Positions 2,776-56,760 of a DNA stretch of 64,000 bases are shown here, piece by piece. Source of the DNA: Dehalococcoidia bacterium. Its GTDB lineage: Bacteria > Chloroflexota > Dehalococcoidia > SZUA-161 > SpSt-899. A program made the translations under genes and the position numbers. The DNA lies in NCBI GenBank assembly GCA_048539495.1, contig JBLYPS010000008.1, forward strand, positions 837-64,836, written 5' to 3'. Position 1 is the first letter of the stretch, and every line of letters begins with the position of its first letter. The notes below the pieces were generated by a model. That model saw only the letters and a list, made by a program, of their open reading frames with translations, made no database searches and was not told the origin of the DNA.

Positions 2776-2789
2776 TTGAGGGGCCGGCA

Positions 2790-2972: not shown

Positions 2973-2989
2973 TGTATCACCTTCCATTA

Positions 2990-10106: not shown

Positions 10107-10152
10107 GCTGTTTGCAATTCTCGAGTGCACTTGATATAATGAATCAGGCAGT

Positions 10153-11478: not shown

Positions 11479-11556
11479 TTGGTAATTGGTGATTGGTGAT
11501 TGGTGATTGCAGACCAACTAATCACTAATTACTAATCACTATTCACTAATCAAGGG
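11476..11556. repeat. heptanucleotide palindromic element (gtgattg units / caatcac arms)
   Basis: attggtaattggtgattggtgattggtgattgcagaccaactaatcactaattactaatcactattcactaatc. Relatives are at 21118-21180 and 32988-33060. Confidence 0.8.
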
Positions 11557-28396: not shown

Positions 28397-31300
28397 GGTG
28401 GCAATGAATTCACGAACATCGGGCCATAGCTCCTCGTATTCAGCCGGCTATCGAGGACCACCATCACTCCCCGGTCGGTCTTCGACCGGATAAGCCGACC
28501 AAACCCTTGCTTGAATCTAAGGGCAGTCTGCGGCAGGGCGTATTCATTGAAGGGATCAGCAAAGGTCTCCGAGCGAGCGGCGAAGATGGGGTCGGTAGGA
28601 ACATTGAAGGGCAAGCGAACTATGACCAGGACGCTGAGTGCCTCCCCCACCACATCAACCCCCTCCCAGAAACTCGCCGCGCCCAGAAGCACCGTCCGGG
28701 GATTGCTCCTGAAAGTAGAAAGGAGCTGCCGCGGCGAGCCATTCACCCCCTGGCCCAAAACAAGGATGTCTTCCTCCTCCAGCGGAGCCTGGATGACGGT
28801 CTGGGTCGCCCGCAACGCCGCATGAGAGGTAAAAAGAACCAGACAGCGTCCTCCAGTAGCCCGACAGAGTGATACCAGTGCCCTTCCCAGGGCTGCTTGA
28901 TAGCCCGCCCTCCCCGGCTCGGGGATATCCGTGACCAGATAGATCAGCGCCGCGCTGCTATAATCGAAAGGCGATCCCAACAGAAGCTCCCGTAGGACGG
29001 GCATCTTGCCCGTCGCCTCTAAGCTAAGTCGTTCCTTGAGAAATTTGAAGTTGCCTTCCGTGCTCAAGGTAGCGCCGGTGAGGATGAGAGAATCCTTTTG
29101 GGAATAGAGGGAGTTTTGTAAGAGCGATCCCACGTGCAAAGGGGCGGAGCGTAAACATATCGTATTGGTCTTTCTGCCCAGAGTGAGCCAGTGGATAGTG
29201 TTCTCCCTGGGATGGAAAACCAACGAGCTTATCTGGTGCCGCAACTCCTCGTTCGTATTTAGCAGCGAGAGCACCTCAAGCTCCCAATAGTCGAGAGTCG
29301 AGAGTCGAGAGTCGAGAGTCGAGAGTCCCCCTCCCTGCCCCGGACTGCTGACTGCTGACTGCTGACTTATTACATGATGTATCTTCTCCAGTATCCGGGC
29401 AATATCCTCCAGTGACAGAAGCAGATTCTCACAGTTGATCTCGATGTCCGACCATGCTGGCTGAGCGCGAATCGCCATGGTGAGACGCAGGTGGAGATCG
29501 TATTCGCTCTGGGTTTCCGTATAGCCCTGAACAAGATCACGAAGATTATTGAAAAACTCCGAGACCCTACGGCGAACCCTGGATACTCCCAGGATCAGCG
29601 AATGGTTCAGTCGTTCGATATCCTCCTTTATTGATGGAGCCAGATCGCCGATGCGGACGAGGTTTTCCAATTGAGGAAGAAAACCAGATCGATTGCCATG
29701 CGTCTCGTAGATTATCTGATCAAGATGATCGAGAAAGTCCTGCTCCCGAAGCTCAGTGCCGAGTTGATCAGTAGCCACGCCCTCGAGGTGATGGGCCTCA
29801 TCAATGACCAGATGGTGATATTCGGGGAGTATCTCCGCACCAGTAGCCATCTCCGATAAGAGGAGGGCATGGTTAGTGACGATGAGATGCGCCCCTGCCG
29901 CTGCCTTACGGGCGCTGTGAAGGAAGCAGATTCCCCACTGTTCTCGGTTGTCAGTTGTCGGTTGACAGTTGACAGCCCCCCGACCCCCGACCCCTGATCC
30001 CTGATCTCTGATCCCTGAATAGGGACATCGCCGCCCGAGGCAATCGTATCCTTGAGCGCAGACCCGCGGCCAGAACGCAAGCTCCCTGCCATCAAGGTTG
30101 AGCTCGGAGCGATCGCCTGTCTGGGTCGTTGGAAGCCAGACCTGAATCCGAGCCAGAAGCTGGATCACCTCAAATGGCAGGCCGTCGGACTTGCGCAAAC
30201 TGTCCCAGCGCCGCAAGCAGAGATAGTTCGTTCGACCCTTCACCTGAGCCACCTTAAGTTTTGAGTATTGAGTATCGAGTTTAGAGGAGGGAGGGTGGCC
30301 TCCAAACTCAGAATTCAGAACTCTAAACTCCAACGCTGACCCGATCGCTTGAACCAGAGCAGGGATATCCTTGTGCACCAGTTGCTCTTGAAGATTGATA
30401 GTATTGGTGGAAATGACCACCGGCACATTGTTGCGGTAGGCGAAAAACGCCGCTGGCAAGAGATAAGCCATCGATTTGCCCGTGCCCGTGCCTGCTTCCA
30501 CAATCAAGTGCTGGCTACCGTTAAGCGCCTCAGCGGCTGCTCTCATCATCTTGACCTGTTCCGGGCGCTGCTCGTACTGGGGGAATGTCCGGGCCAGAGG
30601 CCCATCGCGCTCAAAGAAACCGGTAAGTTCCTCAATATCCAACAGGACCCTTTCTGCGCTCGGAGTCAACGGTTCATTTAGAGCACGATATCCAACTAGT
30701 TTTGAGTATTGAGTATCGAGTTTAGAGGAGGGGAGGTGGCCTCCAAACTCAGAACTCAGAACTCTAAACTCGAACCCTCTTTCCTCCCACACCTTTCGAA
30801 GTAAGCCGCTGAGCCACCAATCGGTATTAGCGCCTTCGGTGCTAACCTTGACCGCTCCGCGGTCAAGGTTTGTGGTCAGACGTACCAGCTCACCCAGGAC
30901 ACTGGCATCAAGTTCGTATAACCGGTTCAGCAGTACTAAGAAGGTCTCCTTGACCACCAGCGCATCGTTCAGTGCACGGTGAGTGGAGGGGTGAGGAATC
31001 CCGAGGTGCGAGGCCACCGCAGTTAGATTGAGCTGCGGGAGGTGCGGGAGCAGAAGCTTGGCCAGAGCGTAGGTATCGTAGGCGGAATTAGCAAAGTGTC
31101 GTAGCCTGATGCCCTTCTTCTCCAGAAAGCTCAGGTCGAAGGATATATTGTGTCCCACCACCGGGCATCCTTCCAAGAAGGCAATCAATCCCTCCGCTAA
31201 CGCTGAAAATGGTGGCGCGGCATCAACCTCCTCTTGCGAAATGGCGCAGAGCGATCTAATGAAGTATGGTATGGGCCGGTGGGGATTGACCAGGGACTGA

Positions 31301-32199: not shown

Positions 32200-33225
32200 T
32201 TATTCGCCCTGTCGGGAGGCTGAAGCCTCCCCTACCAGTATGCCAGCAGTTGTACGCACCAGAAGAGCCTCCATACCCTCCCCATTTAATCGCCTCGCCA
32301 GTGCCTCTCCCTCTACTTCATCGGGCACCAGCGTGAAGAGCATTGGCCCCGCTCCGACGAGGTGAACGCTGCTAGCCCCGGCGGCGAGAAATCTCCTGCG
32401 ATACTCATCGATCTGGGGGAAGAAATCAAAGGCCACACCTTCAAAGGTATTACATAGCAGAGAGGATTGCAAGGGGCGACCACGGCGCAACTCGCTCACC
32501 AGCTTCCGTGTAGCAGCACCGGTTGTGAAATGTGACGAGTCCAACAGGGAATACATTACAGCAGTCTTGGAGGGAACGGGGTCGATCGCTGGCTTCAGCA
32601 GCACCAGCCAGGTTGCAGGCAGCGTGGGAAGAATGGTGATTTTCTCCCCGCGCCCTTCCGCCAGGGCTGTGCCGCCGTAAATGAAAAACGGGGCATCCGA
32701 ACCTATTCTCGCTGCCAGTTGGCTCAGATTCTCGCGAGATAGCTCAAGAGACCAGAGTTGATTTAGCCCCCTCAGTACCGCAGCCGGAATACTGGCACTT
32801 GAGCCGAGGCCGATCCCGCCGGGGATAGCCACGCTTTCCGCTCGAATCACCGCCCCCTTACGAGTCGAGAGTCGAGAGTCGAGAGTCGGGGAGGGGCGGG
32901 GGACTCCAGACTCCAGACTCCAGACTCCAGACTCCAGACTCAGCAGCCTCGCCGCCTTTAATACCATCTTTTCAAACGACGCCATTAGCGAGTGATTGGT
33001 GAATGGTGAACGGTGATTAGTCCCCATCCCCCAAGGCGAGTGATTGGTTTGACCGGTGCCAGGGTCGAGGCACTCAAATTTGATCTCCGTTGCCGGTTCG
33101 AAAGAGAGTACGTCCACGAGATTGATGGTCTGGAGAACGCTCGAGATCTCGTGATAGCCATCATCTCGTCTCCCCAGTACCTCAAGGGTCAAGTTCACCT
33201 TGGCATGGGCCGAAAGGGTTAACAT
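32200..33225 (-). CDS. ispE: 4-(cytidine 5'-diphospho)-2-C-methyl-D-erythritol kinase
   Basis: AHAKVNLTLEVLGRRDDGYHEI N-terminus and the GHMP kinase motif (IPGGIGLGSSAS). The annotated ORF's first 25 codons are encoded by repeat 33232-33310, so the Met at 33225 is the likelier start. An in-frame family A insertion at 32858-32945 gives ...LESGVWSLESGVPRPSPTLDSRL.... Confidence 0.85.
   Translation of the reverse strand: MLTLSAHAKVNLTLEVLGRRDDGYHEISSVLQTINLVDVLSFEPATEIKFECLDPGTGQTNHSPWGMGTNHRSPFTNHSLMASFEKMVLKAARLLSLESGVWSLESGVPRPSPTLDSRLSTRKGAVIRAESVAIPGGIGLGSSASIPAAVLRGLNQLWSLELSRENLSQLAARIGSDAPFFIYGGTALAEGRGEKITILPTLPATWLVLLKPAIDPVPSKTAVMYSLLDSSHFTTGAATRKLVSELRRGRPLQSSLLCNTFEGVAFDFFPQIDEYRRRFLAAGASSVHLVGAGPMLFTLVPDEVEGEALARRLNGEGMEALLVRTTAGILVGEASASRQGE
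32858..32945. repeat. family A palindromic element, in frame in ispE
   Basis: gagtcgagagtcgagagtcgagagtcggggaggggcgggggactccagactccagactccagactccagactccagactcagc. Confidence 0.85.
32988..33060. repeat. gtgattg-family element inside the ispE 5' region
   Basis: gagtgattggtgaatggtgaacggtgattagtccccatcccccaaggcgagtgattggtttgacc. Confidence 0.65.
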
Positions 33226-37717: not shown

Positions 37718-37800
37718 GTTTTGAGTATTGAGTATCGAGTTTACAGGACGGGGTGGCCTCAAAACTCAGAACTCTAAACTCTTGACTCTTGACTCTTGAC
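37718..37800. repeat. family B palindromic element plus 4 tandem 'cttgact' heptamers (intergenic)
   Basis: gagttttgagtattgagtatcgagtttacaggacggggtggcctcaaaactcagaactctaaactcttgactcttgactcttgactcttgac. Confidence 0.85.
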
Positions 37801-37829
37801 TCTTGACATGGCATTAGGCTAAAATCGAA

Positions 37830-39178: not shown

Positions 39179-39243
39179 CGAGTCCAGAGTCCAGAGTCAC
39201 GGGGAGGGGGACTCCAGACTCCAGACTCCAGACTCCAGACTAC
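39179..39243. repeat. family A palindromic element (intergenic)
   Basis: gagtccagagtccagagtcacggggagggggactccagactccagactccagactccagact. Confidence 0.85.
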
Positions 39244-41453: not shown

Positions 41454-41566
41454 ATTGATAATCTATCAAAGGATTTCCCAAGACGTAACAGTTATTGTGA
41501 TATACGGCGTTTTTGCGGTCTAGTTAATTGATAGGCGAACTCAGCCCCCGTGTTGACAATCGTCAC

Positions 41567-41869
41567 ATGACAGGTTGCACTTCATGTGTGATCAAGACAT
41601 TCGCAGACAGGCACACGCAGGAACTGTACGCGACTGGTAGGTCGAAACGGTTCCCGCCGGACATCGCGCGACGGGCGAGGCGGAAGCTTGAGTACATCGA
41701 CTTGGCAACGCGCCTAGATGAACTTAAGGTTCCTCCCGGCAATCGACTCCACCAGCTTGGGCAGCACCGGGAGGGGCAGCACGCCATCTCTATCAACGAC
41801 CAATGGCGCATCTGCTTCCGGTTCGTCGATGGTGATGCCTACGAGGTCGAGGTCACAGACTATCACTGA
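41567..41869 (+). CDS. higB: type II toxin, HigB family (plasmid-maintenance killer protein)
   Basis: VIKTFADRHTQELYATG...FPPDIARRARRKLEYI...RLHQL...WRICFRF is the HigB-like toxin pattern. It sits upstream of an XRE-HTH antitoxin. Confidence 0.75.
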   Translation: MTGCTSCVIKTFADRHTQELYATGRSKRFPPDIARRARRKLEYIDLATRLDELKVPPGNRLHQLGQHREGQHAISINDQWRICFRFVDGDAYEVEVTDYH

Positions 41870-41882
41870 GACGAGGTGTGAC

Positions 41883-42197
41883 ATGAGCATTCCAAACACG
41901 GGGAACAGGGAGGTCCGGCCCGCCCATCCCGGCGAGATGCTTCGGGAGGATTTCCTGCCCGACTACGGGCTCACGGTCTCCGGTCTTGCTGAGGCGTTGG
42001 GCGTCTCGCGTCAGACGGTCAACGAGCTGCTCCGCGAGCGTCGGGCGGTGAGTCCGGAAATGGCGCTCCGGCTCTCGCGGCTGTTCAGAAACTCTCCCGA
42101 GTTCTGGCTCAACGCGCAACGCGCGGTGGACCTATGGGACGCAGCCCAGACCGTCGGGACCGACGTCGAGCGCATCAAGCCCTTGATCGTCGCATAA
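41883..42197 (+). CDS. higA: HigA-family antitoxin (XRE-type HTH)
   Basis: HPGEMLREDFLPDYGLTVSGLAEALGVSRQTVNELL is the HigA HTH signature. It starts 14 nt after the higB stop. Confidence 0.8.
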   Translation: MSIPNTGNREVRPAHPGEMLREDFLPDYGLTVSGLAEALGVSRQTVNELLRERRAVSPEMALRLSRLFRNSPEFWLNAQRAVDLWDAAQTVGTDVERIKPLIVA

Positions 42198-43122: not shown

Positions 43123-43153
43123 ACCCGACGGTTAGGCCGGAAAGGGTGGCCAC

Positions 43154-43954
43154 ATGCAAGTTGAAAGTTTCCAATACCGGGACCCGACGGTCCGATCCGT
43201 TCGAATGAGCCGACGGGCTCTTCTTCAGAGGCTCTGCAACCCGCCTCAAGAGGGCAGATGGTTGCTTGCAATTGATCCCGATACATTGGTTGCAAGCATC
43301 GTCGTTCAGAGACCCGATGGGTTCGTCCCAGACGTGCAGGGACACGAAGATCTTTTCCCACTCCTGATGGCAATCGAGCGGCAGGATGGTTTCATTCAGG
43401 GCGGAGACTGGCTCGTAGCGAGCACACCGGCCAAGCGTGAAAGCGACGGCATTTATCGGAGCTATCGGGTTGAATGGGATGATCCGAACCCGGTCATCAT
43501 GGACCCAGGAATCCCGGTCCCTCACACTGGAGCGCTACGGGTCTTCTTGTGCCACGCATCGCAAGATAAGCCTCGAGTACGCGAGCTTTACGAACAAATT
43601 CTGCGATGGGGATACCGTCCCTGGCTCGATGAAGAGAAAATACTTCCAGGTCAGGACTGGAAGGCGGAAATCCGAAAAGCGATTACGGGCACATATGTGG
43701 TGGTCGTTTGCCTCTCACGCAAGGCCACAACGAAAGCAGGTTTCGTTCAAGCGGAGATCGCGCATGCTCTGGATGTCGCAGATGAGCAGTCTGACGGGAC
43801 TATCTTCATCGTACCCCTTCGGCTTGAGGATTGCCGAGTCCCCGATCGGCTTCAGAGATGGCAGTGGGTGGACTTTTTTGGAGAGAAGGGACCAGACCTG
43901 TTTCAGTATGCTCTCAGGACGCGCGCAGCGACCCTTGATTTCGACAATGACTGA
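43154..43954 (+). CDS. TIR-domain protein with an unknown N-terminal domain
   Basis: The C-terminal ~140 aa read RVFLCHASQDKPRVRELYEQILRWGYRPWLDEEKILPGQDWKAEIRKAI...YVVVVCLSRKATTKAGFVQAEIAHALD...IVPLRLEDC. This is the bacterial TIR layout (FxSY/HxxxD, WxDxxxxxPGxxW, SxxxxxSxWxxxEl). The N-terminal ~130 aa match nothing I recognise. Confidence 0.75.
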   Translation: MQVESFQYRDPTVRSVRMSRRALLQRLCNPPQEGRWLLAIDPDTLVASIVVQRPDGFVPDVQGHEDLFPLLMAIERQDGFIQGGDWLVASTPAKRESDGIYRSYRVEWDDPNPVIMDPGIPVPHTGALRVFLCHASQDKPRVRELYEQILRWGYRPWLDEEKILPGQDWKAEIRKAITGTYVVVVCLSRKATTKAGFVQAEIAHALDVADEQSDGTIFIVPLRLEDCRVPDRLQRWQWVDFFGEKGPDLFQYALRTRAATLDFDND

Positions 43955-44431: not shown

Positions 44432-44689
44432 ATGAAATCCGTCAAATCACTTCCGGGCAAGTTTGCAATCTGTGTCAATAACGCCGACTATCCCGTCTCG
44501 CTGGAACTGCACAAGCTCTATGGCCTGGTGCCAGATGAGGAGGCCGAGCGAGATGGCGACTTGCGCGTGATTGACGAAAGCGGCGAAGACTATTTGTATC
44601 CAGCGGAGTATTTTCTGGTGGTGGAATTCCCTCAGACGATACAACAGGCATTACAAACGTCTTTCGCACGCACAGTGCAACCCGCGTAA
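44432..44689 (+). CDS. small acidic hypothetical protein
   Basis: 85 aa, acidic (DEEAERDGDLRVIDESGEDYLY). Starts 12 nt after the previous ORF. Confidence 0.35.
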   Translation: MKSVKSLPGKFAICVNNADYPVSLELHKLYGLVPDEEAERDGDLRVIDESGEDYLYPAEYFLVVEFPQTIQQALQTSFARTVQPA

Positions 44690-44784
44690 GCGTCAAATCC
44701 AGGCACGCGGTCCAACACGGCATGCGGCCGACCGCTTCGCGCTGCGCCCTCGCCGCGGCTGATGCCCACGTTAGGCGACGCGGT

Positions 44785-46230
44785 ATGAACCCTTTCTTGC
44801 CAAGCCCTATGATGGAATCGATCTCCGACTATACTCTTGAAAGATTCTCGCGAGCGGTCACGCTCACAGTTCTCGAACTGGACGTAGACCGCCATGCACT
44901 CGTTCCCGCCTACCTCATAGCCAACCTCATGTCGCCAGCTTTGTGGAGATGGCGGGAAGAGCGCAGAGCCTGCGCTCGGAATGGGCAGCTCTTGGGCGCG
45001 AACCGCCGTCTCAAGGAGCTCGAAAGACACTTCCACCGATACACATTCACGCACTTCGCAGACCAGCCAGGCGGCGATCCGTGGGGCTTACTCAGCTTCT
45101 CAGACGAAGAACAGCGTCTCGGGAGCGAGTACGTTCGACATGCGCGGCAGGAGTACGACGAGACGCTTAAGGGCCTGCTGAGGCAGAACCCTGATAGCCA
45201 GTTCGGGCAGATCGTCAAGCAGGATTACTATGAGCGTGGATACTTCCCACGGCTGAGGAATGAGACCCTCGAGGTAATGGACGCGTATTCCACCATTTCG
45301 GACGACGGCAGAGGCTCGGGCAAGTGTGCCGCACTCGCAATGCTTTGGGCAGCCGCGCTTATGGTTTGGGGCCGCTTCCCTCCTGAGAGAATCGCACTGA
45401 TAGGGAACCGTGCCCACGTATTCGTGTTCCTCGATGAGGATAATGGTCACCTCTTCAACAACACAAAGTGGTTCAGTCGGACAAGAATCCACAACGCGTC
45501 GGAGCTCTCCGAGTTCGTGAAGATGGTTACGACCGGCACGAGCACAACGTTCTTCTACTGCCCATCCCTCGGAATGTGCCAGTGTTCAGAGAGGAAATCG
45601 ACGATCCCGTGCGATCACTTAGTGGAGTTGTACCGCCATGTTCGAGACTTCCTCTCGGTTCCCCTGAGGCACCCGGACCCGGCGAACATCTGCTTCGAGG
45701 GAGTATCTGATCCCATTCCGCTCCCATCCGCGTACACCTCAGCCCAGGACTATCGTGATGCCGTCTGGGCCTTGGCGGATCGTCGCCCGGAGTCGGTCTA
45801 CGACTTGGCTCGGTATGCATACCGGTCGCTGGATGTGCCTGCGCCCGCGGTATACGCTCGGGCCGCTCTTCGTGACTATCATGCCCAGGACGCAGCGCGG
45901 CGCATCGGAGATCTCGAAGGGGCCATAGAGTTCGTAAGGAGGATACCCGGACGCCGTTCCGTATTCGACAGCAGAGAACGTATCCAGCTGCCTGACGAGA
46001 CGTTGGCCTTCCGAACAGGCGATGACAGCGACAGGGCACTGCTTCTGTTCACCTTACTTTCGCACTCCTGTGGGCAGTCATCTCGGGTCGGGGTCGCCTT
46101 GACCGATGATGCCAGCTATGTGCGTTTCGAGGGGCTCTGGGTAAATGCTGGTACGCTGTCGGTCGAGTCCCGGACGCCTGAAGGAGTGACCTCTGTGTTC
46201 AACGAGATGGGGAGTTCAGTCGTTTCGTGA
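44785..46230 (+). CDS. large hypothetical protein with a possible transglutaminase-like/papain-like Cys-His-Asp core
   Basis: A GSGKCAALAMLWAAALMVWG segment is followed about 30 aa later by HVFVFLDEDNGHLFNNTKW. That spacing suggests a transglutaminase-like cysteine protease core, but this is uncertain. 482 aa from the Met at 44785; the ORF track starts at 44722. Confidence 0.4.
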   Translation: MNPFLPSPMMESISDYTLERFSRAVTLTVLELDVDRHALVPAYLIANLMSPALWRWREERRACARNGQLLGANRRLKELERHFHRYTFTHFADQPGGDPWGLLSFSDEEQRLGSEYVRHARQEYDETLKGLLRQNPDSQFGQIVKQDYYERGYFPRLRNETLEVMDAYSTISDDGRGSGKCAALAMLWAAALMVWGRFPPERIALIGNRAHVFVFLDEDNGHLFNNTKWFSRTRIHNASELSEFVKMVTTGTSTTFFYCPSLGMCQCSERKSTIPCDHLVELYRHVRDFLSVPLRHPDPANICFEGVSDPIPLPSAYTSAQDYRDAVWALADRRPESVYDLARYAYRSLDVPAPAVYARAALRDYHAQDAARRIGDLEGAIEFVRRIPGRRSVFDSRERIQLPDETLAFRTGDDSDRALLLFTLLSHSCGQSSRVGVALTDDASYVRFEGLWVNAGTLSVESRTPEGVTSVFNEMGSSVVS

Positions 46231-46983: not shown

Positions 46984-47245
46984 CACAGGGCCAATGGTGA
47001 CATCATCCTGATTTTGGAGAGTCTTATCAAGCGTAGTCCTCAGAGCGTGGGAAAGCCTACTACAAGGGGAAGGACTTGACGGGAGTACGTAGCTCGCAAA
47101 GAGCCTGCCCTGAGCGAAGCCGAAGGGAAACTTATGCCGGACATAGCAGGACCGGAGCAACATAAGCCAAACTCCCTGCGGGGAATAGCAAACAGGTCGG
47201 GAGCCGGCAACGGTTACGACCTGCGCGGAACCGAGTACAACCGAG

Positions 47246-47279
47246 GAACCGGATGCGGGAAAATCGCACGTCCGGGTCT
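47246..47279 (+). ncRNA. group II intron domain V-like motif (probable degenerate intron 3' remnant)
   Basis: GAACCGGATGCGGGAAAATCGCACGTCCGGGTCT resembles the domain V consensus GAGCCGTATGCGATGAAAGTCGCACGTACGGTTCT. It has the same 2-nt AC bulge and helix register, and a hairpin follows. No intron-encoded reverse transcriptase is present. Confidence 0.4.
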
Positions 47280-47365
47280 GTGCGGGGGGCGACGGGTAAC
47301 CGGCGTTCCTACCGCGGCGGCTTGGAGTGAGTGATGAAACAGAGGGTATCATATAGAAGGTTAAC

Positions 47366-47587
47366 ATGAGCGCTATAGAGATGTTACAAACGGGGGAATT
47401 TGTGGTGGATGCCCACGGGAATAGGAGAGCTGTGTTGCTCGATTACAAAGTTTGGGAAGAACTGTTGACCTTGCTTGAAGATTGGGAAGATGCGGAGGAC
47501 ATTCGTCGTCTCCACGAGACCGGAGAGGAGGCAATCCCGTGGGAACAAGCGAAAGCAGAGCTACGAGCTAAGGGGATAGATGTATAG
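47366..47587 (+). CDS. type II antitoxin (Phd/RelB-like partner of the RelE/ParE toxin)
   Basis: 73 aa, acidic, 8 nt overlap with the downstream RelE/ParE toxin. Confidence 0.6.
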   Translation: MSAIEMLQTGEFVVDAHGNRRAVLLDYKVWEELLTLLEDWEDAEDIRRLHETGEEAIPWEQAKAELRAKGIDV

Positions 47588-47831
47588 CGTCTGCATCCTG
47601 CGGGGGGCCATCAAGGACATCGCCGACTTACCTAAGGAGTATGCCCGTTTGGCCAGCGAGCATATTGACCGCTTGCGGGAGAACCCTCGTCCGCCAGGTG
47701 CAAAGAAACTCCGAGGGACGACAGATTACAGTTTACGGGTGGGGGTGTATCGCATTCTCTACGACATAGATGATAGCCCTCGCATTGTCACCGTCTATCG
47801 AGTGAAACATCGGCGCGAAGCCTATCGCTGA
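47580..47831 (+). CDS. RelE/ParE-family type II toxin
   Basis: LPKEYARLASEHIDRLRENPRPPGAKKLRGTTDYSLRVGVYRILYDIDDSPRIVTVYRVKHRREAY is the RelE/ParE pattern. Confidence 0.8.
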   Translation: MYSVCILRGAIKDIADLPKEYARLASEHIDRLRENPRPPGAKKLRGTTDYSLRVGVYRILYDIDDSPRIVTVYRVKHRREAYR

Positions 47832-48161: not shown

Positions 48162-50501
48162 ATGACAAACGCGTCGGCTGACTATCTTGCCCACTCAGCA
48201 AACAAATATGGCAAGGTTGATCTCCTTCGTTCTCACCTCCAAAACGTTGCCAACCGCGCAGCCGAGTATGCCGAGACCTTCGGCGCTTCGGAGGAAGCCA
48301 GGCTGGCGGGTCTGCTGCACGATCTGGGGAAATATGGTGACTTGTTCCAGAGGCGACTTGAGGGGAAGGAAAGTGGGATTGATCACTGGTCGTCCGGAGC
48401 GTGGGAGGCTCTCACTAAACATCAGCAACGCGGAATTGCCATAGCCCTGGCAATCCAGGGACACCATGTCGGACTTCAGCATGCATCTGGAGATGCTCTA
48501 AGGGGCATTAATCCTGAGAAGCTGCAGGGATATCATTCGCTGGGCTTGCGACTCTCAGAGCCCGATACCAAGAAGCTGCTGCAACGGCTTGGTACGGACG
48601 GTCTGAACTTATCCCCAATCTCTTCCTCTCTTTATCCGGGGGTAAAGGAATCCTTCGAACAGAAAGAGACCGCTGCTGCCATGATGGATGTGCGGATGTT
48701 ATTCTCCACTTTGGTGGACGCTGACTTCATAGAAACTGAGGCCCATTTCCAGGAGGACTCGGATGGCAGTAAAGCTTACCGTGAGACAGGGCCTCTATTG
48801 AAACCCCAACAGACCCTGTTGCATCTCCTGGCCTACTTAAAAGAACTGGCAGTCGGTTCCGAAGCCGCCCCGCACGTGAATCAATTGCGCACACATCTAT
48901 TGCAGGCTTGTTTGGCCGCGGGAGACTTGCCGCAGGGGATTTTCACTCTTACGGCCCCGACAGGAACAGGAAAGACATTTAGCATGCTGGCCTTTGGCCT
49001 GCAACACGCGGTGAAACATGATCTTGAACGGATCATTATGGTGATTCCCTACCTGAGCATTATTGAGCAGACGGTGAGGGAGTATCGGAAAGCCCTCAAA
49101 AAATGCTTTGGTTCAGAGAGTATGCAATTCATTTTGGAGAATCACAGCCTTGCAGGCACCCGCGCCGGTGATGGGAGCGATAGCGGAAAAGAAGCCGACA
49201 TGGAGAACGAATCTCGCCGACGGGCACAGTTGCTCGCAGAGAACTGGGATGCCCCTATTGTTGTCACCACCAGTGTTCAATTGCTTGAGTCCCTGTTCGC
49301 CAATCGACCCTCGGCGTGTCGCAAACTGCATCGTCTGGCCAAGAGCGTCATTTTCTTTGATGAAGTGCAGACGCTTCCCGTATCGCTTGCTATCCCCACC
49401 CTGGCCACACTCTCCCGCCTGGCAGAACGATATGGCGCAACAGTGGTCTTCTCCACGGCCACACAGCCCGCTTTTGTGCATCTGAATGATCATGTAAGGG
49501 AATACTGCACTGGCGGTTGGGGAGCATCCGAAATTGTCCCCCCCCGGCTGAAGCTTTTCAGCAGGGCCAGGCGAACTTGTGTCGAATGGCCCGAGAATCT
49601 CAACCAGACGCTATCCTGGACAGCACTGGCCGAGCAGATTTCTCAGCACGAACGAAAGCAAGTCCTTTGCATTGTCAACCTGAAGACACACGCGCTCTTT
49701 CTGCATCAAAAGCTGGAGGAGCTCGGTGTTGAAGGGCTCTTTCATCTTTCCACCAATATGTGTCCGGCTCATCGACAGGATGCCCTGGAGCAAGTACGCC
49801 AGCAGCTGGATAAGAAACACCCATGTCATCTAATCTCCACTCAGTGTGTCGAGGCAGGGGTGGATGTGGATTTTCCGGTTGTCTATCGGGCATTCGGCCC
49901 ACTTGACGCAATTGCTCAAGCAGCCGGGCGCTGCAACCGTAATGGCCACGCCGAAACGGGCATCGTTTACGTGTTTTTACCGGAAGAAGAGAGATACCCC
50001 GACGGGGCATATGAGCAGGCTGCCGGCATCACGCGCTTTCTCCTGCAGAAGCATGGTAAGGCTGGGATGGATATCCACGACCCGGCGCTCTTTGCCGAGT
50101 ACTATCGGGAGCTTTATGACCTCATGCGCCCGGAGAACCAGAAAAAAGAACTTGCCGACGCTATCAAAGGACAGCACTTCATTGAGGTGGCAAGCCTGTA
50201 TCGAGTTATTGCCCGGGATGCCATAAATGTTCTCGTTCCCTACGATATTGATGCCTTTGCCAAACTCGGAGGTGAGGTTCGCCAAACCGGATTGAACGGC
50301 AAATGGATCGCCAAAGCGCGCCCCCACACCATAGGCTTGTTCAGGCCAAAGCTGTATGACCCGGTCAGTTCGTATCTTGACCGCATTCCCATTGGGAAGG
50401 GCAACTACTCAGAGGAATGGTATATCTATCTGAATGCCGAACATTATGATCAAACAAAAGGGCTTGTCCTGCCAACTTCAATGGAATTGCTGATTGGTTG
50501 A
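48162..50501 (+). CDS. cas3: CRISPR-associated helicase/nuclease Cas3 (HD domain plus SF2 helicase)
   Basis: N-terminal HD motifs (LLHDLGKYGDLFQ; H...D), Walker A APTGTGKT, a DEVQ box (FFDEVQ), and a helicase C-terminal domain. It is the first gene of a type I-C operon. Confidence 0.9.
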   Translation: MTNASADYLAHSANKYGKVDLLRSHLQNVANRAAEYAETFGASEEARLAGLLHDLGKYGDLFQRRLEGKESGIDHWSSGAWEALTKHQQRGIAIALAIQGHHVGLQHASGDALRGINPEKLQGYHSLGLRLSEPDTKKLLQRLGTDGLNLSPISSSLYPGVKESFEQKETAAAMMDVRMLFSTLVDADFIETEAHFQEDSDGSKAYRETGPLLKPQQTLLHLLAYLKELAVGSEAAPHVNQLRTHLLQACLAAGDLPQGIFTLTAPTGTGKTFSMLAFGLQHAVKHDLERIIMVIPYLSIIEQTVREYRKALKKCFGSESMQFILENHSLAGTRAGDGSDSGKEADMENESRRRAQLLAENWDAPIVVTTSVQLLESLFANRPSACRKLHRLAKSVIFFDEVQTLPVSLAIPTLATLSRLAERYGATVVFSTATQPAFVHLNDHVREYCTGGWGASEIVPPRLKLFSRARRTCVEWPENLNQTLSWTALAEQISQHERKQVLCIVNLKTHALFLHQKLEELGVEGLFHLSTNMCPAHRQDALEQVRQQLDKKHPCHLISTQCVEAGVDVDFPVVYRAFGPLDAIAQAAGRCNRNGHAETGIVYVFLPEEERYPDGAYEQAAGITRFLLQKHGKAGMDIHDPALFAEYYRELYDLMRPENQKKELADAIKGQHFIEVASLYRVIARDAINVLVPYDIDAFAKLGGEVRQTGLNGKWIAKARPHTIGLFRPKLYDPVSSYLDRIPIGKGNYSEEWYIYLNAEHYDQTKGLVLPTSMELLIG

Positions 50502-50615
50502 TGTCGGAGCGTGATGCCAGACTTTAGCTTCGCCAAAGCGACTCTCAGGGGCGCGCTACGAAAATCCAGGTTGGAGGAGGTGCTATGTATAAATAACCGA
50601 AGTTGAAACCAGGGT

Positions 50616-51395
50616 TTGCCAGTCAGAAAGGAGAAAGGAGGTTGTGTGAAACCGAAAGATCAGGTGCTGGAAGTGTGGGGCGATTTCGCCTGCTTTACCA
50701 GACCGGAACTCAAGGTGGAGCGATTCAGCTATCCGGTTATCACGCCCTCGGCCGCGCGAGGCATCTACGATGCTATCTACTGTAAACCCAACAGAGACCC
50801 CACGAAGGCTGAATTCCGCTGGCAGGTAACCAGGATAGAAATCCTGTCACCACCGCAATACATTGCCTTGCGTCGCAACGAAGTTAAGGACAAGGCCCCA
50901 GCGAAGGCTATCGTTACTTGGATGAGCGGCAAAAAACCACCGGAGCCCCTCTGGGCTGATGGCACCTCGGACATGCTGGGCACGGACCAGAAAGGACGCA
51001 CGCAGCGGCAGACGATGGCTCTGAAAGGCGTTCGGTATCATCTACACGCAGAGGTCCGACCCTGGCCTGGGTTCGAAGATCGGCTACAAGCAATAGAAAA
51101 TTGCTTCCGCCGTCGCGCTGCCACCGGCAAGTGCATCTACCAGCCTTACTTTGGCTGCCGCGAGTTCCCCGCCTATTTCAAGTTGGTCGAGCCGGATGCC
51201 CCTTCCGTGGAACGGGTACAGGATGACAGGGATATCGGTTGGATGCTCTACGACGTTTTCGATCTTTCCCAACCGGGGGGCTGTGATGATGAACCTTGCA
51301 TTAGCCTCTTTCGGGCAAAAGTCACCGAAGGGATACTGAAAGTGCCAGAATATGAAAGCGAGGCGGTGCTCAAGGGTGTGAGGAGGGAACGCTGA
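50616..51395 (+). CDS. cas5: Cas5c/Cas5d (type I-C)
   Basis: LEVWGDFACFTRPELKVERFSYPVITPSAARGIYDAIYCKP is the Cas5d signature. The start may be the GTG at about 50645. Confidence 0.85.
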   Translation: MPVRKEKGGCVKPKDQVLEVWGDFACFTRPELKVERFSYPVITPSAARGIYDAIYCKPNRDPTKAEFRWQVTRIEILSPPQYIALRRNEVKDKAPAKAIVTWMSGKKPPEPLWADGTSDMLGTDQKGRTQRQTMALKGVRYHLHAEVRPWPGFEDRLQAIENCFRRRAATGKCIYQPYFGCREFPAYFKLVEPDAPSVERVQDDRDIGWMLYDVFDLSQPGGCDDEPCISLFRAKVTEGILKVPEYESEAVLKGVRRER

Positions 51396-53281
51396 TGCTG
51401 GATATACTTGTAAGATACGCACATGATCGTGGGCTGGAGCCAGAACCGGGCTTTAAGGCCAAGGACGTCCGCTGGGCTATTGTCTGCGACGCTGATAGTC
51501 GATTTCTCAATGTTCTCCAACTGGGCGATACAAGTCAGAAGAACAATCCGGGACAAACGTTTCATAAATGCCCGGACCTCAGCCAACCAGAGATGGTGGC
51601 AGGTGGAGAGACGAAAAGCCACTTCCTGGTGGAGACCGCCGAAGTTGTGGCACTCTACGGAAAGAATGCCGTTAATCCCAAAGTCCGCGAACGCCACCAG
51701 TACTTCGTGAAGCTACATCAGGATGCGGGAACGTCCATGCCTGAGCTGGCCAGGCTGGCAGAGCAACTTGGCCAGCCGGAAACCATCGGTGCGATACGAT
51801 CACGATTCGAATCTCAGAAAGTCAAGCCCTCCGAAAAGGTGACATTTCGAATCGGAAGTGCCTATCCTGTAGAGTCTGATGCATGGCATGACTGGTGGCG
51901 TGAGTTCAGAAAAGGGCTGGCAGGAGGCAAATCCGAGGGAAAAGAAGGAGCTGCAAAGAAATCCGCACGGAACAAAGACGCGAGCGCCTTGATGCGCTGT
52001 TTTATCACCGGGGAATTGGTCGAACCGGTACCCACGCACTTGAAGATAGAGAAGCTCGCCGATGTCGGCGGCCAGCGCAGTGGCGACGCCCTGATCTGTT
52101 TTGACAAAGAGGCATTTCGTTCATATCGGTTGGAGCAATCTGCCAATGCAGCGATCTCGGAGCAATCCATGGCATCCTATTGCGCTGCGCTTAATCACCT
52201 CATAAAAAGGAGCGGTCGGCGTTTGGCCGGAGCCAAGGTTGTTCACTGGTTCAAGAGAAAGGATGTGCCAGAAGAAGACGATCCTATGGCATGGCTGGAG
52301 GAAGGAGCGGGGCAACAGGAGCTGAATGCCCAACGCCGGGCTGAAGAACTGCTTCAGAGCATCCAGACTGGAAAGCGCCCTGATCTGGCCAATAACTACT
52401 TCTACGCACTCACACTCTCCGGGGCAGCGGGGCGAGTGATGGTGCGTGACTGGATGGAGGGGCGATTTGAGGAGTTGGTGACAAACATCTGCGCCTGGTT
52501 TGATGATCTGGAGATTGTAAACTTATCCGGCGTGAAAAGTGCCAGGACCCCAGGCATTGAGCGTGTGATCACATGTCTTTTGCCGCTGAAAAAGAAAAAT
52601 CAGGAGTACAAGGACTGGATCAAACCGATTGGAGCAGAACGTCTGAGCCTTTGGCAGGCAGCTATTCGTGGACGTAAGACACCGATTTCTCACAGCGCAG
52701 TGTCGCGTGCAGTATTGTTGAATCGAGAGTTTTGCTTATCAGCAAAACTGGAGGAGGCTCTCCAAAGAAACGATGACCGAGCAAACACTCTGTCTTTGCT
52801 CTATGCCCGCATGGGCCTGATGAAGGCGTATCACCTTCGCAAAAACAGGGAAGGAGGAAGAGAAACGATGACATCGGAGTTAAAACCATACTTGAATGAG
52901 GATCACCCTCACCCCGCTTACCACTGCGGGAGGCTCATGGCCGTACTGGCCGCCCTCCAGCGCGCCGCACTGGGGGATATCGGTGCAGGTGTGGTCCAGC
53001 GTTATTATGCTGCTGCCAGCAGCACGCCGGCGCTGGTGTTAGGACGCCTGACTCGCACCAGCCAGTTCCATCTGAATAAACTGGAGCAGGGGCTGGCCTA
53101 TTGGTACGAGAGCAAAATTGCCCAGATCTGGAGCCGCATTAAGGACGGTATTCCTGGAACATTGAGTCTGGAAGAACAGAGTCTTTTTGCCCTGGGCTAC
53201 TACCAGCAGATTGCTCACATGAGAACAAAACGGTCGGATAAGTCCGAAAATCAACCCAAAGAGGAGGACAACAATGAGTAA
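51395..53281 (+). CDS. cas8c: Cas8c/Csd1 (type I-C large subunit)
   Basis: 628 aa, between cas5c and cas7c. Its position and size fit Csd1, and it overlaps the neighbouring genes by a few nt. Confidence 0.75.
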
Positions 53282-54290
53282 CCCAATCACAAATCGCTAC
53301 GAGTTTCTCTATCTGTTTGACTGCGAAAACGGCAATCCCAACGGTGATCCCGATGCCGGCAATGCCCCGCGCATCGATCCTCAGGACATGTGTGGGCTGG
53401 TCTCCGACGTTGCCCTGAAGCGGCGGGTGCGTAATTATATCCAGCTCGCCAGGGGCAATCAGATGCCCAACGCCATCTTCATCGAGCACGCGACCAATCT
53501 GAATCGCCCCATCGTCCGCGCTCACGAAGAGACCGAAGGTGGACTTAGCGAAACCCAAAAAGGTGCAGGCAAGAAAAAGGTCGAGTTGGCCCGAGAGTGG
53601 ATGTGCAAGAACTTCTATGACGTGCGTACTTTTGGGGCGGTGATGAGCACTGGCCCAAACGCCGGCCAGGTGCGTGGCCCGGTGCAGTTCGCTTTTGCCC
53701 GCTCCCTCGATCCTGTTCTACCTCTCGATATCTCCATTACACGGATGGCGATAGCGGAAAACGTAAGGGGGGCAAAATCAAGTGAAGACTATGCAAAATG
53801 GGAAGCTGAGCAACCTGAAGACTCGCTCCGCACGATGGGCCGCAAAGCCATGATTCCCTATGGGTTGTACGTAGCCAAGGGCTTTATCAGCGCCCATCTT
53901 GCCGAGGGAACTGGCTTTTCTGAAGGTGATCTGGACTTGTTTTGGAACGCATTGCTTGGAATGTACGAACATGACCGCTCGGCGAGTAAGGGCCTCATGT
54001 CGGTGCGCGAGCCGATCTTCGTCTTCCAGCACGTGGGGACCGACAGCGATGAAAGGCAGCGAGCCCGGCAATCCAAACTTGGCTGTGCGCCCGCACATAA
54101 GCTTTTTGATCTCGTGGAGATTCAAAAGCGTGAGGGAGTCGATGTCCCTCGGACCTTTGCAAATTACCGGATTATATTCCACAAGAGTCGATTGCCGAAT
54201 GGTGTACGGGCCGGCTTCATTGTCTCAGGTGATGGCGGAAAAGCAGATATCCGCTGGGACGAGCCTCCTGACTCAATACTGGAAGGGTGA
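53274..54290 (+). CDS. cas7: Cas7c/Csd2 (type I-C backbone subunit)
   Basis: [30 protein letters not shown]...[15 protein letters not shown] is the Csd2 N-terminal signature. Confidence 0.9.
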
Positions 54291-54523
54291 GTGGAATAAC
54301 AGGCGGGTAATACTGTCAAATGACGTCCACTATTTTTGACTGCCTCGACCTGGGTAGAGATTATACCCCTCGCCCTAGGGCCGTCAAGGGTAAAGGCTTT
54401 GCCCGATCTGAAGCTCGCCCTTGACAGCCCGGCGGGCTCGGGATAACGTTTCCAGTAACAAGTCGAGGCAAGTTTGCATCTTTTTGGAGTAGCAGTCATT
54501 TGACAGAATAGGTAATCGTAGTT

Positions 54524-55204
54524 ATGTATAGTGAAGATGAACTCCTGCCCATCTCCGCCCTTCAGCACTTGCTCTTCTGTGAGCGCCGGGCGGCTCTGGT
54601 TCACATTGAGGGTCTGTGGGATGAAAATCCTTTCACCGTAGAGGGACGCTACCTGCATGAGCGCACGCACGAGATAGGTACCGAGGTTCGCGGTGACCTG
54701 CGAATCGCACGCGGCCTGCGTCTGCGCTCGCTCCGGTTGGGACTTACGGGAAAGGCAGATGTGGTAGAGTTCTGCCGTCTGCCGGAAGGTCGGGCAGGGG
54801 TATCTTTCGTGAATGTGAGCGGCCTATGGAATCCTATTCCTGTGGAATACAAGCGAGGCAGACTCCGCCATGAAAGGGGTTACGAAGTCCAGCTCTGCGC
54901 TCAGGCCATATGCCTGGAGGAAATGATGAACGTCGAGGTAGGAGCTGGGGCAATTTACTATGGCAAGACTCGCCGCCGGCTTGAAATCACCTTTGACGAG
55001 AAGCTCCGCCGGGAAACGGAAAGAGCCGCTGAACGTCTACATGAACTATTGGCATCTGAAGGAACGCCCGGGGCCGTTCATGGGCCGAAATGCAAGAGCT
55101 GTTCACTGCTCGATCTCTGTATGCCCGGCCTCACCGGCAAGCGACGGAATGTACGGGGATATCTGTCAAAGGCCATCGCCGAGGCAGGAGAGGATAAATT
55201 ATGA
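54524..55204 (+). CDS. cas4: Cas4 (RecB-like nuclease, Fe-S)
   Basis: ISALQHLLFCERRAALVHIEGLWDENPFTVEGRYLHER, a DxK-type core, and a C-terminal Cys cluster (CKSCSLLDLC). Confidence 0.85.
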   Translation: MYSEDELLPISALQHLLFCERRAALVHIEGLWDENPFTVEGRYLHERTHEIGTEVRGDLRIARGLRLRSLRLGLTGKADVVEFCRLPEGRAGVSFVNVSGLWNPIPVEYKRGRLRHERGYEVQLCAQAICLEEMMNVEVGAGAIYYGKTRRRLEITFDEKLRRETERAAERLHELLASEGTPGAVHGPKCKSCSLLDLCMPGLTGKRRNVRGYLSKAIAEAGEDKL

Positions 55205-56232
55205 AACGCTTGCTCAATACGCTGTATGTTACTACTCAGGGCTCCTATCTGGCGCGGGAGGGCGAGACGGTGCTGGTCCGGGTTGGCGGAGAAACGAAGC
55301 TCCGCCTGCCGGTCCATACTCTGGGCAGCATTGTATGTTTCGGTCAGGTTTCCTGCAGTCCGCCGCTGATGGGACTGTGCGCCGAGCGCAACGTGGCGAT
55401 CTCCTTCCTCAGCGAGCGAGGGAGGTTTTTCGCCCGGGTCGAGGGACCCGTCTCGGGCAATGTGTTGTTGCGACGCGAGCAGTACCGCCGAGCGGACGAC
55501 CCCGAAGTCTCAGCCGAACTCGCCCGCGCGATGGTCATTGCCAAGATCGCCAATTGCCGGACGGTTCTTCTCAGAGCGGCTCGTGACCGGCCCGAGGACG
55601 AGGGTGCTGGGAAGCTATCAGAGGCAGCCGATCGTCTGGCACAACATCTCAAGAGTCTGGAGAACCCGGTGCCGCTTGATACTGTGCGTGGCAAGGAAGG
55701 GGATGCGGCACGGCGGTACTTTGATGTTTTTGACCACCTGATCACCAGCCAAAAGGAGAGTTTCTTTTTCCACGAGCGCAGCCGCCGTCCGCCGCTGGAT
55801 AATATGAATGCGCTTCTTTCATTCCTGTATACCCTGCTGGTTCATGACGTTGCCGCGGCGCTTGAGGGAGTGGGGCTCGATCCGGCGGTGGGATATCTGC
55901 ATCGGGATCGACCGGGACGCCCGGGACTTGCGCTCGATATAATGGAGGAATTCAGGCCTTATCTGGCAGACCGCCTGGCGCTGTCGCTCGTGAACCGGCA
56001 ACAGATCAAGGGAAAGGGGTTTCGGAGAACGGAAACGGGAGCCGTGCTCATGGATGATGCCACCCGTAAAGAAGTGCTTGTAGCTTATCAAAAGCGGAAA
56101 CAGGAGGAAATTCAGCACCCTTTCTTAGGAGAAAAGGTTGAAGTAGGACTCCTGCCACATGTGCAGGCACTGCTTCTGGCACGGCACTTACGGGGAGACC
56201 TGAATGGGTATCCACCGTTTTTCTGGAAATAG
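55201..56232 (+). CDS. cas1: Cas1 integrase
   Basis: LNTLYVTTQGSYLAREGETVLV... with the Cas1 metal-binding region. 343 aa; start overlaps the cas4 stop. Confidence 0.9.
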   Translation: MKRLLNTLYVTTQGSYLAREGETVLVRVGGETKLRLPVHTLGSIVCFGQVSCSPPLMGLCAERNVAISFLSERGRFFARVEGPVSGNVLLRREQYRRADDPEVSAELARAMVIAKIANCRTVLLRAARDRPEDEGAGKLSEAADRLAQHLKSLENPVPLDTVRGKEGDAARRYFDVFDHLITSQKESFFFHERSRRPPLDNMNALLSFLYTLLVHDVAAALEGVGLDPAVGYLHRDRPGRPGLALDIMEEFRPYLADRLALSLVNRQQIKGKGFRRTETGAVLMDDATRKEVLVAYQKRKQEEIQHPFLGEKVEVGLLPHVQALLLARHLRGDLNGYPPFFWK

Positions 56233-56338
56233 GTAAACCCGACCCGTGGCTTTGCGCAAGTGCCATGGGTAGCACATTAACAACTGGATATTGAAGGACA
56301 GCAGTTTGGGGTAAGAATCATGAAACGGAGAGAGCAAA

Positions 56339-56629
56339 ATGCTGGTTCTGGTAACCTATGATGTTAGCACAGAGTCGGAGGGGGGACAGAAAAGGCTGCG
56401 GCGTGTGGCCAAGATATGCAAAAACTACGGCCAGAGGGTGCAGAAGTCGGTCTTTGAATGTTTGGTGGATCCTGCCCAGTGGGCGGCAATGCGACAGCGT
56501 TTGATAGATGAAATCAAGACCGAAGAAGACAGCTTGCGCTTCTATTTTCTGGGGAAGAACTGGAAGAGAAGAGTGGAGCATGTGGGAGCCAATGCCGGTT
56601 ACGATCCCGAGGGGCCCCTGATTGTTTGA
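56339..56629 (+). CDS. cas2: Cas2
   Basis: MLVLVTYDVSTESEGGQKRLRRVAKICKNYGQRVQKSVFEC; 96 aa. Confidence 0.9.
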   Translation: MLVLVTYDVSTESEGGQKRLRRVAKICKNYGQRVQKSVFECLVDPAQWAAMRQRLIDEIKTEEDSLRFYFLGKNWKRRVEHVGANAGYDPEGPLIV

Positions 56630-56760
56630 AGTGCCTTTTGCGCCGACCCGGAGCGATCGCGGATCACGTGTGGGGTCCGCGAGCTTTGAGAGTTCCTTTT
56701 TCCAGTCGCTTAAGGGCGTGTTCGCGCAGCGGCATGGATTAAAACGTATCTGGAGATACG

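Follow-up and report, generated by a model that had tools for sequence, protein, structure and literature searches.

Which kind of signal could control a TIR domain whose partner in the same protein resembles no described family? The question is raised by a gene (Table 1) in a 64,000-nt stretch of a Dehalococcoidia bacterium (assembly GCA_048539495.1, contig JBLYPS010000008.1, positions 837-64,836 of the forward strand), which is called the window here. An earlier examination limited to the letters of this DNA (the sequence-only reading) had described the product as a C-terminal TIR domain fused to an unrecognised N-terminal domain and had suggested that the latter could be a sensor or ligand-binding module gating a TIR NAD+ hydrolase (NADase). 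We have found that this N-terminal domain of ~100 residues, which we refer to as Ndom (conserved span, residues ~13-110), is a conserved, autonomous and rare domain without detectable relatives. It is combined with the same effector classes as CARF and SAVED, namely TIR, HEPN and HD_4, and it is tightly linked to type III-B CRISPR loci whose Cas10 is cyclase-competent. These domain combinations and this genomic context support the proposed gating, and we regard the chances as about evenly balanced that the window gene encodes a signal-gated NADase with a new type of nucleotide-messenger sensor.

The TIR half and the conserved N-terminal domain

The fusion itself was confirmed. Pfam TIR_2 (PF13676) matches residues 130-244 of the window protein with an E-value of 2.4e-26 (93 bits against a cut-off of 28), which places this half in the TIR superfamily, and Pfam TIR (PF01582) also matches the protein (E=1.2e-6). 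The three TIR landmarks that had been pointed out are present and in order (F131-LCHASQD138, W157-LDEEKILPGQDW169, and C186-LSRK...VQAEIAHA205). The top PADLOC matches are the TIR domains of Argonaute-associated TIR proteins (E=3.9e-15), and a profile of 16 family members searched against the PDB retrieved SPARTA TIR-APAZ as its best match (8qlo, E=3.6e-8), followed by the TIR domain protein 7uxr, AbTir, PdTIR-like chains, Cat1 (9mud), a metazoan TIR-STING fusion, and Roq1.

The alignment check for a catalytic glutamate that the sequence-only reading had proposed singled out E201, which is invariant in the 16-sequence family alignment. The alignment with 8qlo passes through 'GfvqaEikya' / 'G-VLKEIAVA' and E201 falls on the glutamate of the SPARTA TIR domain, which by residue counting would be E77 of MapSPARTA; the E77A variant of that protein is the standard catalytically dead control (PMC10899771). 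In a full-length AlphaFold 2 (AF2) model, residues 129-265 form the alternating strands and helices expected for a TIR domain, with E201 at the start of helix 200-211 and behind strand 182-187. The window protein has the sequence-level requirements of an enzymatic TIR domain and NADase activity is predicted for it. The nearest TIR domains beyond the family (55-73% identity) are preceded by domains as varied as FGE-sulfatase, XRE-HTH, WD40, AAA and CheY, among others, and this variety of unrelated N-terminal partners indicates that the TIR domain of the window protein is an often-shuffled output module.

A hypothetical protein deposited from Dehalococcoidia metagenome-assembled genomes (MAGs) is 100% identical to the window protein (P0001; proteins and loci are cited by our P and L numbers), and ~18 full-length homologues share 46-70% identity with it, coming from Desulfobacterium sp. 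N47, Deltaproteobacteria and various metagenomes. Across these homologues the N-terminal part (residues ~13-110) shows the same degree of conservation as the TIR part, which indicates that it is a real, selected domain and not the product of a mis-called start, and which favours the ATG at 43154 over the shorter NCBI call of 230 amino acids (P0002). The two domains are separated by a linker whose columns are variable in the family alignment and whose residues 111-126 have a predicted local distance difference test score (pLDDT) below 50 in the full-length model. A pattern scan for promoters and terminators between the stop of the upstream open reading frame (ORF) at 43122 and the Ndom-TIR gene found none, and such scans were uninformative around the gene in general.

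The claim that the N-terminal ~130 residues match no family held in every search. For the first ~128 residues there was no match in Pfam (in a scan including all 19 members of the domain alignment), NCBIfam, PADLOC or PHROGs, and neither single-sequence nor profile searches matched a PDB sequence. When residues 1-129 were searched with phmmer against 1.84 billion (1.84e9) representative proteins only 26 proteins matched, a profile search enlarged the set by about a dozen, and scans for Ndom gave 6 loci from 185,579 species genomes and 10 loci from JGI metagenomes. Ndom is thereby a rare domain, with a few dozen proteins among billions. The phmmer matches to giant Ig-repeat proteins were judged spurious and due to repetitive sequence (P0136 confirmed by Pfam, P0142 and P0145 by inference). 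As no Ndom was found in IMG/VR viral contigs, phage records or plasmid records, a viral or plasmid origin, as an anti-CRISPR or a sponge, was rejected. In the literature covered, which was incomplete (ring nucleases, type III effectors, the 39 accessory families of Shah et al., and the 2025 CRISPR classification), we found no named equivalent of Ndom.

Eight residues (E65, D66, F68, P69, M72, D85, W86, and Y104) are invariant in all architectures in the 19-sequence alignment and six more (G63, H64, G84, Y101, R102, and W108) are nearly so, giving the motifs GHEDLFP, GGDW and YRSY..W; the position of H64 is occupied by Tyr, Asp or Met in 5 of the 19 members. The invariant acidic and aromatic residues (E65, D66, D85, F68, W86, and Y104) would be compatible with a nucleotide pocket. 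Structure prediction and a structural similarity search, both suggested by the sequence-only reading for this part, gave a confident model (pLDDT 86.9, predicted template modelling score 0.77, residues 12-110 mostly above 90) and no common known fold. The model, made by AF2 from the 19-sequence alignment, is a small alpha/beta unit with about 5-6 strands and two short helices, and its order of secondary structure elements is identical in the domain-only and full-length models. Foldseek searches with it found nothing below E=1.6 (TM<0.25) among 350,542 PDB chains and nothing below E=0.6 in BFVD.

Ndom in other proteins and in type III CRISPR loci

According to Pfam assignments and inspection, Ndom behaves as a mobile module. 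The Ndom-TIR architecture is that of the window protein, L014, L015/22/23, L021 and others (L020 is a 99% identical copy of the window locus from a metagenome record), and it is extended to AbiJ_NTD5-Ndom-TIR in L024. In Ndom-HEPN proteins (P0122 and P0125) the effector belongs to PF05168, and in HD_4-Ndom proteins (L019, L025, L026, L028, P0124, P0128, and P0134) it is a SpoT/Mesh1-like hydrolase with its HxxQxRK, LLHD..ED and DK..N motifs intact. Other members carry an N-terminal part of ~90 residues without assignment and with the motif WVPG[VI]GNGALG (X-Ndom; L016, L017, L032/P0148, and P0127) or are of the X'-Ndom type (P0139 and P0144), and Ndom is also found as stand-alone proteins of 82-116 residues (P0146, P0147, P0149-P0151, P0153, P0154, P0123, P0133, P0140, and others). 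The stand-alone Ndom gene of L011 (2209-2502) stops early at 'HDGIYRS*', short of the last conserved strand, and may be a truncated copy or contain a sequencing error. The Ndom-TIR contig L015 (CAZOEM010000388.1) comes from a MAG labelled 'uncultured Halobacteria archaeon' and has near-identical copies in two other metagenomes (L022 and L023); this could reflect either a binning error or a transfer of the gene between domains.

All informative loci of non-TIR Ndom genes (12/12) adjoin cas or CARF genes, which is far beyond chance when compared with our rough estimate that a random gene lies within 10 kb of a type III gene in ~1/1000 of cases. Cmr operons of type III-B predominate among the 12, and the neighbours are type III-B, CARF or Card1 genes in L010, L011, L016, L017, L018, L019, L026, L027, L028 and L032. 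In L028 a complete operon (Cmr2/Cas10, Cmr3, RAMP, Cmr5, RAMP, RAMP) is followed by the HD_4-Ndom gene (9428-10294), which overlaps the last RAMP gene by 4 bp, and then by CARF_Card1-AAA_28, Cas_APE2256 and Cas_NE0113 genes. HD_4-Ndom also follows Cas10 and RAMP genes in L019 (9347-10231, with Cas_NE0113 next) and in L026 (8113-9024), stands between a Cmr1-like RAMP gene and an NE0113-like gene followed by RT-Cas1 in L018, and precedes, as a fragment, a homologue of the L010 CARF_Card1 gene in L027. Stand-alone Ndom genes are found in L010 (RAMP, RAMP, Cmr5, RAMP, two unassigned genes, Ndom, small SAVED, Cas6, STIV_B116-like, CARF_Card1, Cas_NE0113), immediately 5' of RAMP-Cas10-Cmr3-RAMP in L011, and ~1 kb from a Cas_VVA1548 gene in L012. 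X-Ndom follows Cas_NE0113 and a CARF(Cas_APE2256)-HD_4 protein (2204-4108) in L016 and lies beside Card1-like nucleases in L017 and L032, the latter with reverse transcriptase, Cas1 and Cas2 genes close by. The GGDD cyclase motif is intact in the Cas10 proteins of L011, L019, L026 and L028 (4/4), and these systems can therefore be expected to produce nucleotide messengers.

The SpoT/Mesh1-like HD_4 domains embedded in type III-B loci have one of two partners: Ndom, in which case the gene closes the cmr operon, or a CARF domain of the Cas_APE2256 type. The CARF-fused HD_4 of L016 and the Ndom-fused HD_4 of L028 are 38% identical (E=2e-17). This hints at a messenger-controlled hydrolase of alarmone-type nucleotides, or at a new ring nuclease, in CRISPR signalling.

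Some Ndom-TIR genes have a related context. In L009/L021 the gene is flanked by a Cas6-like gene and a STIV_B116-like gene, both homologous to those flanking the stand-alone Ndom of L010; the STIV_B116-like Pfam family includes the Crn2/AcrIII-1 ring nucleases. In the contig of P0010 (JGI 3300075153) the Ndom-TIR gene (919-1722) is followed after 43 bp by a gene for an mCpol-domain protein of 501 amino acids (1765-3270), and then by a second TIR protein. The N-terminal part of this mCpol protein has a weak CARF-like match (L008 1396-2250 is listed alongside), and the two genes may be a Panoptes-like pair of cyclase and effector.

A proposed messenger-gated NADase and its alternatives

Because Ndom is paired with the output domains of CARF and SAVED and sits in cyclase-competent type III-B loci, the most economical explanation is that it binds a messenger and controls the effector fused to it. 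The window protein would then be a single-chain effector with Ndom as the ligand-binding input and TIR as the output. The ligand would most likely be a nucleotide messenger of the cyclic-oligoadenylate type made by Cas10 or by an mCpol-type cyclase. We infer that ligand binding would lead Ndom to self-associate, which would pair the TIR domains and form active sites around E201, where NAD+ would be hydrolysed and the growth of the infected cell arrested. With somewhat less confidence, we propose that Ndom is a third sensor class beside CARF and SAVED and structurally unrelated to them, which would have arisen in type III-B modules, gating or accompanying SpoT-like HD hydrolases, and later escaped to TIR and HEPN effectors that are free-standing or coupled to mCpol, the window gene being one example. 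In that case its ligand might be a product of Cas10 different from the common cA4 and cA6.

Several observations weigh against this explanation. The type III linkage that recurs in the Ndom family is not found for the window copy, and 7 of the ~9 distinct Ndom-TIR loci, the window included, have no type III genes or cyclase nearby. No cas10 or cyclase gene was seen among the neighbours in L001 (other TIR proteins, RelA_SpoT, AAA_15/DUF3696, and group II intron reverse transcriptases), L003 (IS91-type transposases and NTase/HEPN), L005-7 (HigB toxin and M16 peptidase), L015 (PIN) or L024 (housekeeping genes). Among the scanned ORFs of the window there is no type III gene, mCpol or CD-NTase and the only cas genes are of type I-C; this lack of a messenger source in 64 kb is the weakest point for the window copy. 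The X'-Ndom gene of L030/31 lies beside a type V-like locus (C2c1_RuvC-like, Cas4-Cas1, Cas2, and array), and such loci are not known to use nucleotide signalling. Stand-alone CARF proteins are typically ring nucleases, which makes a stand-alone Ndom acting as a pure sensor hard to explain. At the level of the sequence, residue 97 of the window protein (43442-43444) is Ser where most members have the His of the 'HDG.YRSY' motif, and the Ndom model was built on a shallow alignment of 19 sequences, its N-terminal part being less confident in the full-length model. The sensor role is suggested by homology and context.

Ndom could instead be an enzyme of a new ring nuclease or phosphodiesterase family that degrades the type III messenger, with the stand-alone and HD_4-fused copies resetting the signal. 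When fused to TIR or HEPN, it would both bind the messenger and limit the activity of its own effector, as is known for Csm6 and some other CARF proteins, and in this respect the explanation, which we consider unlikely, overlaps with the sensor role since the messenger is still bound. Many Ndom members are stand-alone proteins of ~95-115 residues within type III loci, a small format typical of the extrinsic ring nucleases Crn2, Crn3, Csx15, Csx16 and Csx20 (PMC12409355), but Ndom has no structural similarity to a solved ring nuclease or any other PDB entry. Its invariant E65, D66 and D85 resemble, together with the near-invariant H64, a catalytic or metal-binding constellation, of which the histidine is the residue replaced in five members. 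Most loci whose Cas10 is active are reported to contain a ring nuclease (PMC12669027) and the HD_4-Ndom loci L019, L026 and L028 contain no other recognised one among the scanned genes; however, STIV_B116-like (L010) and Cas_VVA1548 (L012) genes are already present beside stand-alone Ndom. Furthermore, no sensor besides Ndom is recognisable in the Ndom-TIR and Ndom-HEPN proteins, and Ndom must therefore be at least also their input domain.

It is quite unlikely, in our opinion, that Ndom is a protein- or RNA-interaction module, which would dock on the Cmr complex or on a different partner, or sense a phage component directly, and would switch on the effector with no small-molecule messenger involved. 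The translational coupling of HD_4-Ndom to the last Cmr gene in L028 and its presence in the same slot in L018, L019 and L026 are as expected for a subunit of the complex, although Ndom also occurs in genomes and loci without Cmr genes and docking specific to Cmr cannot be general. Most Ndom-TIR genes are solitary in defence islands without a nearby cyclase, which fits a self-contained protein that senses the invader directly, whereas the abundance of CARF and SAVED proteins and of GGDD-competent Cas10 in the loci points to messenger signalling, as does the set of partners (TIR, HEPN, and HD), which is the classic one of messenger-gated effectors. We find it very unlikely that the window protein is an ordinary orphan TIR_2 protein, in which Ndom would be a passenger or an oligomerisation domain and the CRISPR neighbourhood of its relatives would reflect clustering in defence islands and be irrelevant to the window copy. 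The shuffled partners of its closest outside TIR domains would agree with this, and so would its location among toxin-antitoxin modules (HigBA and ParE-type), an intron remnant and unrelated cargo, with an upstream neighbour from an unrelated mobile family of ~250 amino acids. But clustering does not explain why no fewer than 10 independent loci, spread over different phyla, have Ndom within Cmr operons or CARF clusters, nor why it is combined with three different catalytic effector domains and conserved as strongly as TIR.

The messenger-gated NADase proposed here can be compared with known systems. Judged from its sequence, the window protein would functionally resemble Cat1 and TIR-SAVED, although it fails to show the CARF or SAVED domain that defines them. 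Cat1 (CRISPR-associated TIR 1) is a CARF-TIR fusion (PMC12162218) that likewise joins an input domain and a TIR NADase domain with a catalytic Glu in one chain and belongs to type III CRISPR signalling, to which the window protein is linked through the Ndom family, and its TIR domain was found by the window-family profile (9mud, E=5.5e-5). However, the sensor of Cat1 is a Rossmann-like CARF and its TIR domain is N-terminal (chain residues 3-95 match), whereas in the window protein the input domain is N-terminal and shows no CARF family match at E<=0.1 and no structural match to any PDB chain. Moreover, the window gene lies outside a type III locus, although the Ndom-TIR gene of L009 has the Cas6-like and STIV_B116-like neighbours mentioned above. 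TIR-SAVED, described as a cA3-activated effector of CBASS and type III systems (Hogrel et al. 2022, as cited in PMC11229360), is a TIR effector under messenger control and 'moonlights' in both CRISPR and non-CRISPR signalling, in parallel to the mixed contexts of Ndom-TIR. The window protein differs from it by the reversed domain order and by the absence of any SAVED match, the PADLOC SAVED_TIR model matching the TIR part only (E=1.6e-5), and no cyclase was seen among its scanned neighbours.

SPARTA TIR-APAZ provides the closest solved TIR domain by profile, with an alignment through the catalytic Glu, and the best PADLOC matches. However, SPARTA is activated by binding of a guide-target duplex and not by a small N-terminal domain, and the window protein ends 22 residues past the TIR match, without APAZ and without an Argonaute among its neighbours; the PADLOC Aga_TIR models also match only its TIR part. 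Thoeris was rejected because the protein scored below the ThsB_TIR cut-off (17.9 against 21.2 bits; E=0.015 for PADLOC ThsB) and had neither a ThsA (SIR2/Macro-SLOG) neighbour nor any neighbour with a PADLOC match, and membership in Thoeris, SPARTA, CBASS or retron-TIR systems was discarded as only the TIR part matches.

The CARF-HEPN proteins Csm6 and Csx1 and the CARF-HD_4 proteins are mirrored by Ndom-HEPN (P0122 and P0125) and HD_4-Ndom, and in L016 a CARF-HD_4 protein is encoded beside an Ndom protein; the differences are that Ndom replaces CARF and that the HEPN domain is of the PF05168 type, and the window has no gene for any of them. Stand-alone Ndom shares a size of ~100 residues and a type III location with the stand-alone ring nucleases (Crn2/AcrIII-1 DUF1874, Crn3/Csx3, Csx15, Csx16, and Csx20), but it has no sequence or structural similarity to the known ones (Crn1-5, Csx15, Csx16, and Csx20). 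Crn2 is common in viruses, in contrast to Ndom with its absence from viral contigs, phage and plasmid records. The P0010 pair has the two-gene layout of Panoptes, a cyclase plus an effector, which is seen in only one Ndom locus and is lacking in the window, where no mCpol or other cyclase is found among the scanned ORFs; the Panoptes effectors described are membrane proteins or CARF-TM, not TIR (PMC13577387). What would be new here is a TIR effector with messenger-type gating, as predicted, through an input domain that has no previous description in the literature searched.

If ligand binding is true, Ndom itself would be a new sensor class. Being ~100 residues long, well folded in the model, stand-alone in some proteins and without detectable relatives, it is a cheaply testable candidate for a class of sensors or ring nucleases, and could offer a new fold for ligand recognition, possibly lead to a new messenger, and serve as a new switch with which ligand-controlled NADases or RNases could be engineered. 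Its role would explain a set of otherwise unannotated type III-B genes, and the fusion to SpoT-like hydrolases hints that CRISPR signalling and the metabolism of alarmone-type nucleotides may be connected.

The surroundings of the window gene

The features of the window are collected in Table 1. The Ndom-TIR gene is a solitary cargo gene of a defence island and is not part of an obvious multi-gene system.

Table 1. Positions of the Ndom-TIR gene, its parts and the surrounding features in the window
Feature	Position	Strand	Basis or remark
Ndom-TIR gene, whole (266 aa, ATG start)	43154..43954	+	ORF list
Shine-Dalgarno-like GGAAAGGGTGG, 5-15 nt before ATG	43139..43149	+	direct reading of sequence
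Ndom, residues ~13-110, alpha/beta domain without description	43190..43483	+	19-sequence alignment, AF2 model
Linker, residues ~111-129	43484..43540	+	weak conservation, predicted disorder
TIR domain, residues 130-244 (Pfam TIR_2)	43541..43885	+	Pfam, PADLOC, PDB profile search, model
Codon of putative catalytic glutamate E201	43754..43756	+	translation VQAEIAHA
groES/groEL		-	read from translations; first in order around the gene
HigB/HigA	41528-42197		
Upstream ORF, 291 aa	42247-43122	+	stop 31 bp before Ndom-TIR
Two small ORFs 3' of Ndom-TIR, 77 and 85 aa	44187-44420, 44432-44689	+	
502-aa ORF	44722-46230	+	no Pfam, PADLOC, NCBIfam or PHROG match; followed by a 142-aa ORF
Group II intron domain V/VI	47244-47318	+	Rfam RF00029, 42.9 bits
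Small ORF	47366-47587		overlaps start of ParE-type toxin gene
ParE-type toxin gene	47580-47831		
Complete type I-C system (Cas3, Cas5, Csd1/Cas8c, Cas7, Cas4, Cas1, and array)	48162-58246		begins 4.2 kb 3' of the TIR gene
CRISPR array, repeat GTCGCCCCCCACGCGGGGGCGTGGATTGAAAC	57027-57787 and 58018-58246		
Heptad arrays	14543-14624, 14833-14917, 20761-20832, 29289-29367, 32862-32941, 11476-11552		
Single heptad arrays	19107-19139, 37778-37807, 39210-39241		

Two neighbours were considered as partners of the gene and rejected. The upstream ORF belongs to a separate family whose members stand as lone genes among transposases and reverse transcriptases, and none of the other Ndom loci contains one. 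This family has 41 proteins of ~250 amino acids from Acidobacteriota, Verrucomicrobiota, Calditrichaeota and others, none with a Pfam match, and in L037 its member is directly 3' of an RVT_1 reverse transcriptase and an 88-aa ORF; it may constitute independent defence or mobile-element cargo. The lengths in the family suggest that the true start of the upstream ORF is 3' of the GTG at 42247. The 502-aa ORF, taken as a possible counterpart of the P0010 mCpol protein, showed no similarity to the N-terminal 285 amino acids of the latter by BLASTP and had no match in the libraries. By eye, it presents a Cys...His...Asp arrangement (GSGKCAALAM ... NRAHVFVFLDEDNG) like that of transglutaminase-like cysteine proteases, for which it is only a candidate.

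Homologues of the two small ORFs 3' of the gene (58% and 45% identical) occur in the same order in L003 (843-1064 and 1110-1304), ~4.7 kb 5' of another Ndom-TIR gene. The pair may be toxin-antitoxin-like and its co-occurrence with Ndom-TIR could be due to chance. The small ORF overlapping the ParE-type toxin gene probably encodes the antitoxin of this toxin. Between the 142-aa ORF and this pair sits the group II intron match, with no reverse-transcriptase ORF nearby, which is probably an intron remnant.

Finally, the window contains many short arrays of 7-bp units with GAGTC/GACTC, usually as close pairs of opposite sense, such as (GAGTCAA)x5 followed by (GACTCCA)x5, which would form heptad-repeat hairpins. 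They lie partly within ORFs and partly in intergenic positions, for example just 3' of groEL.

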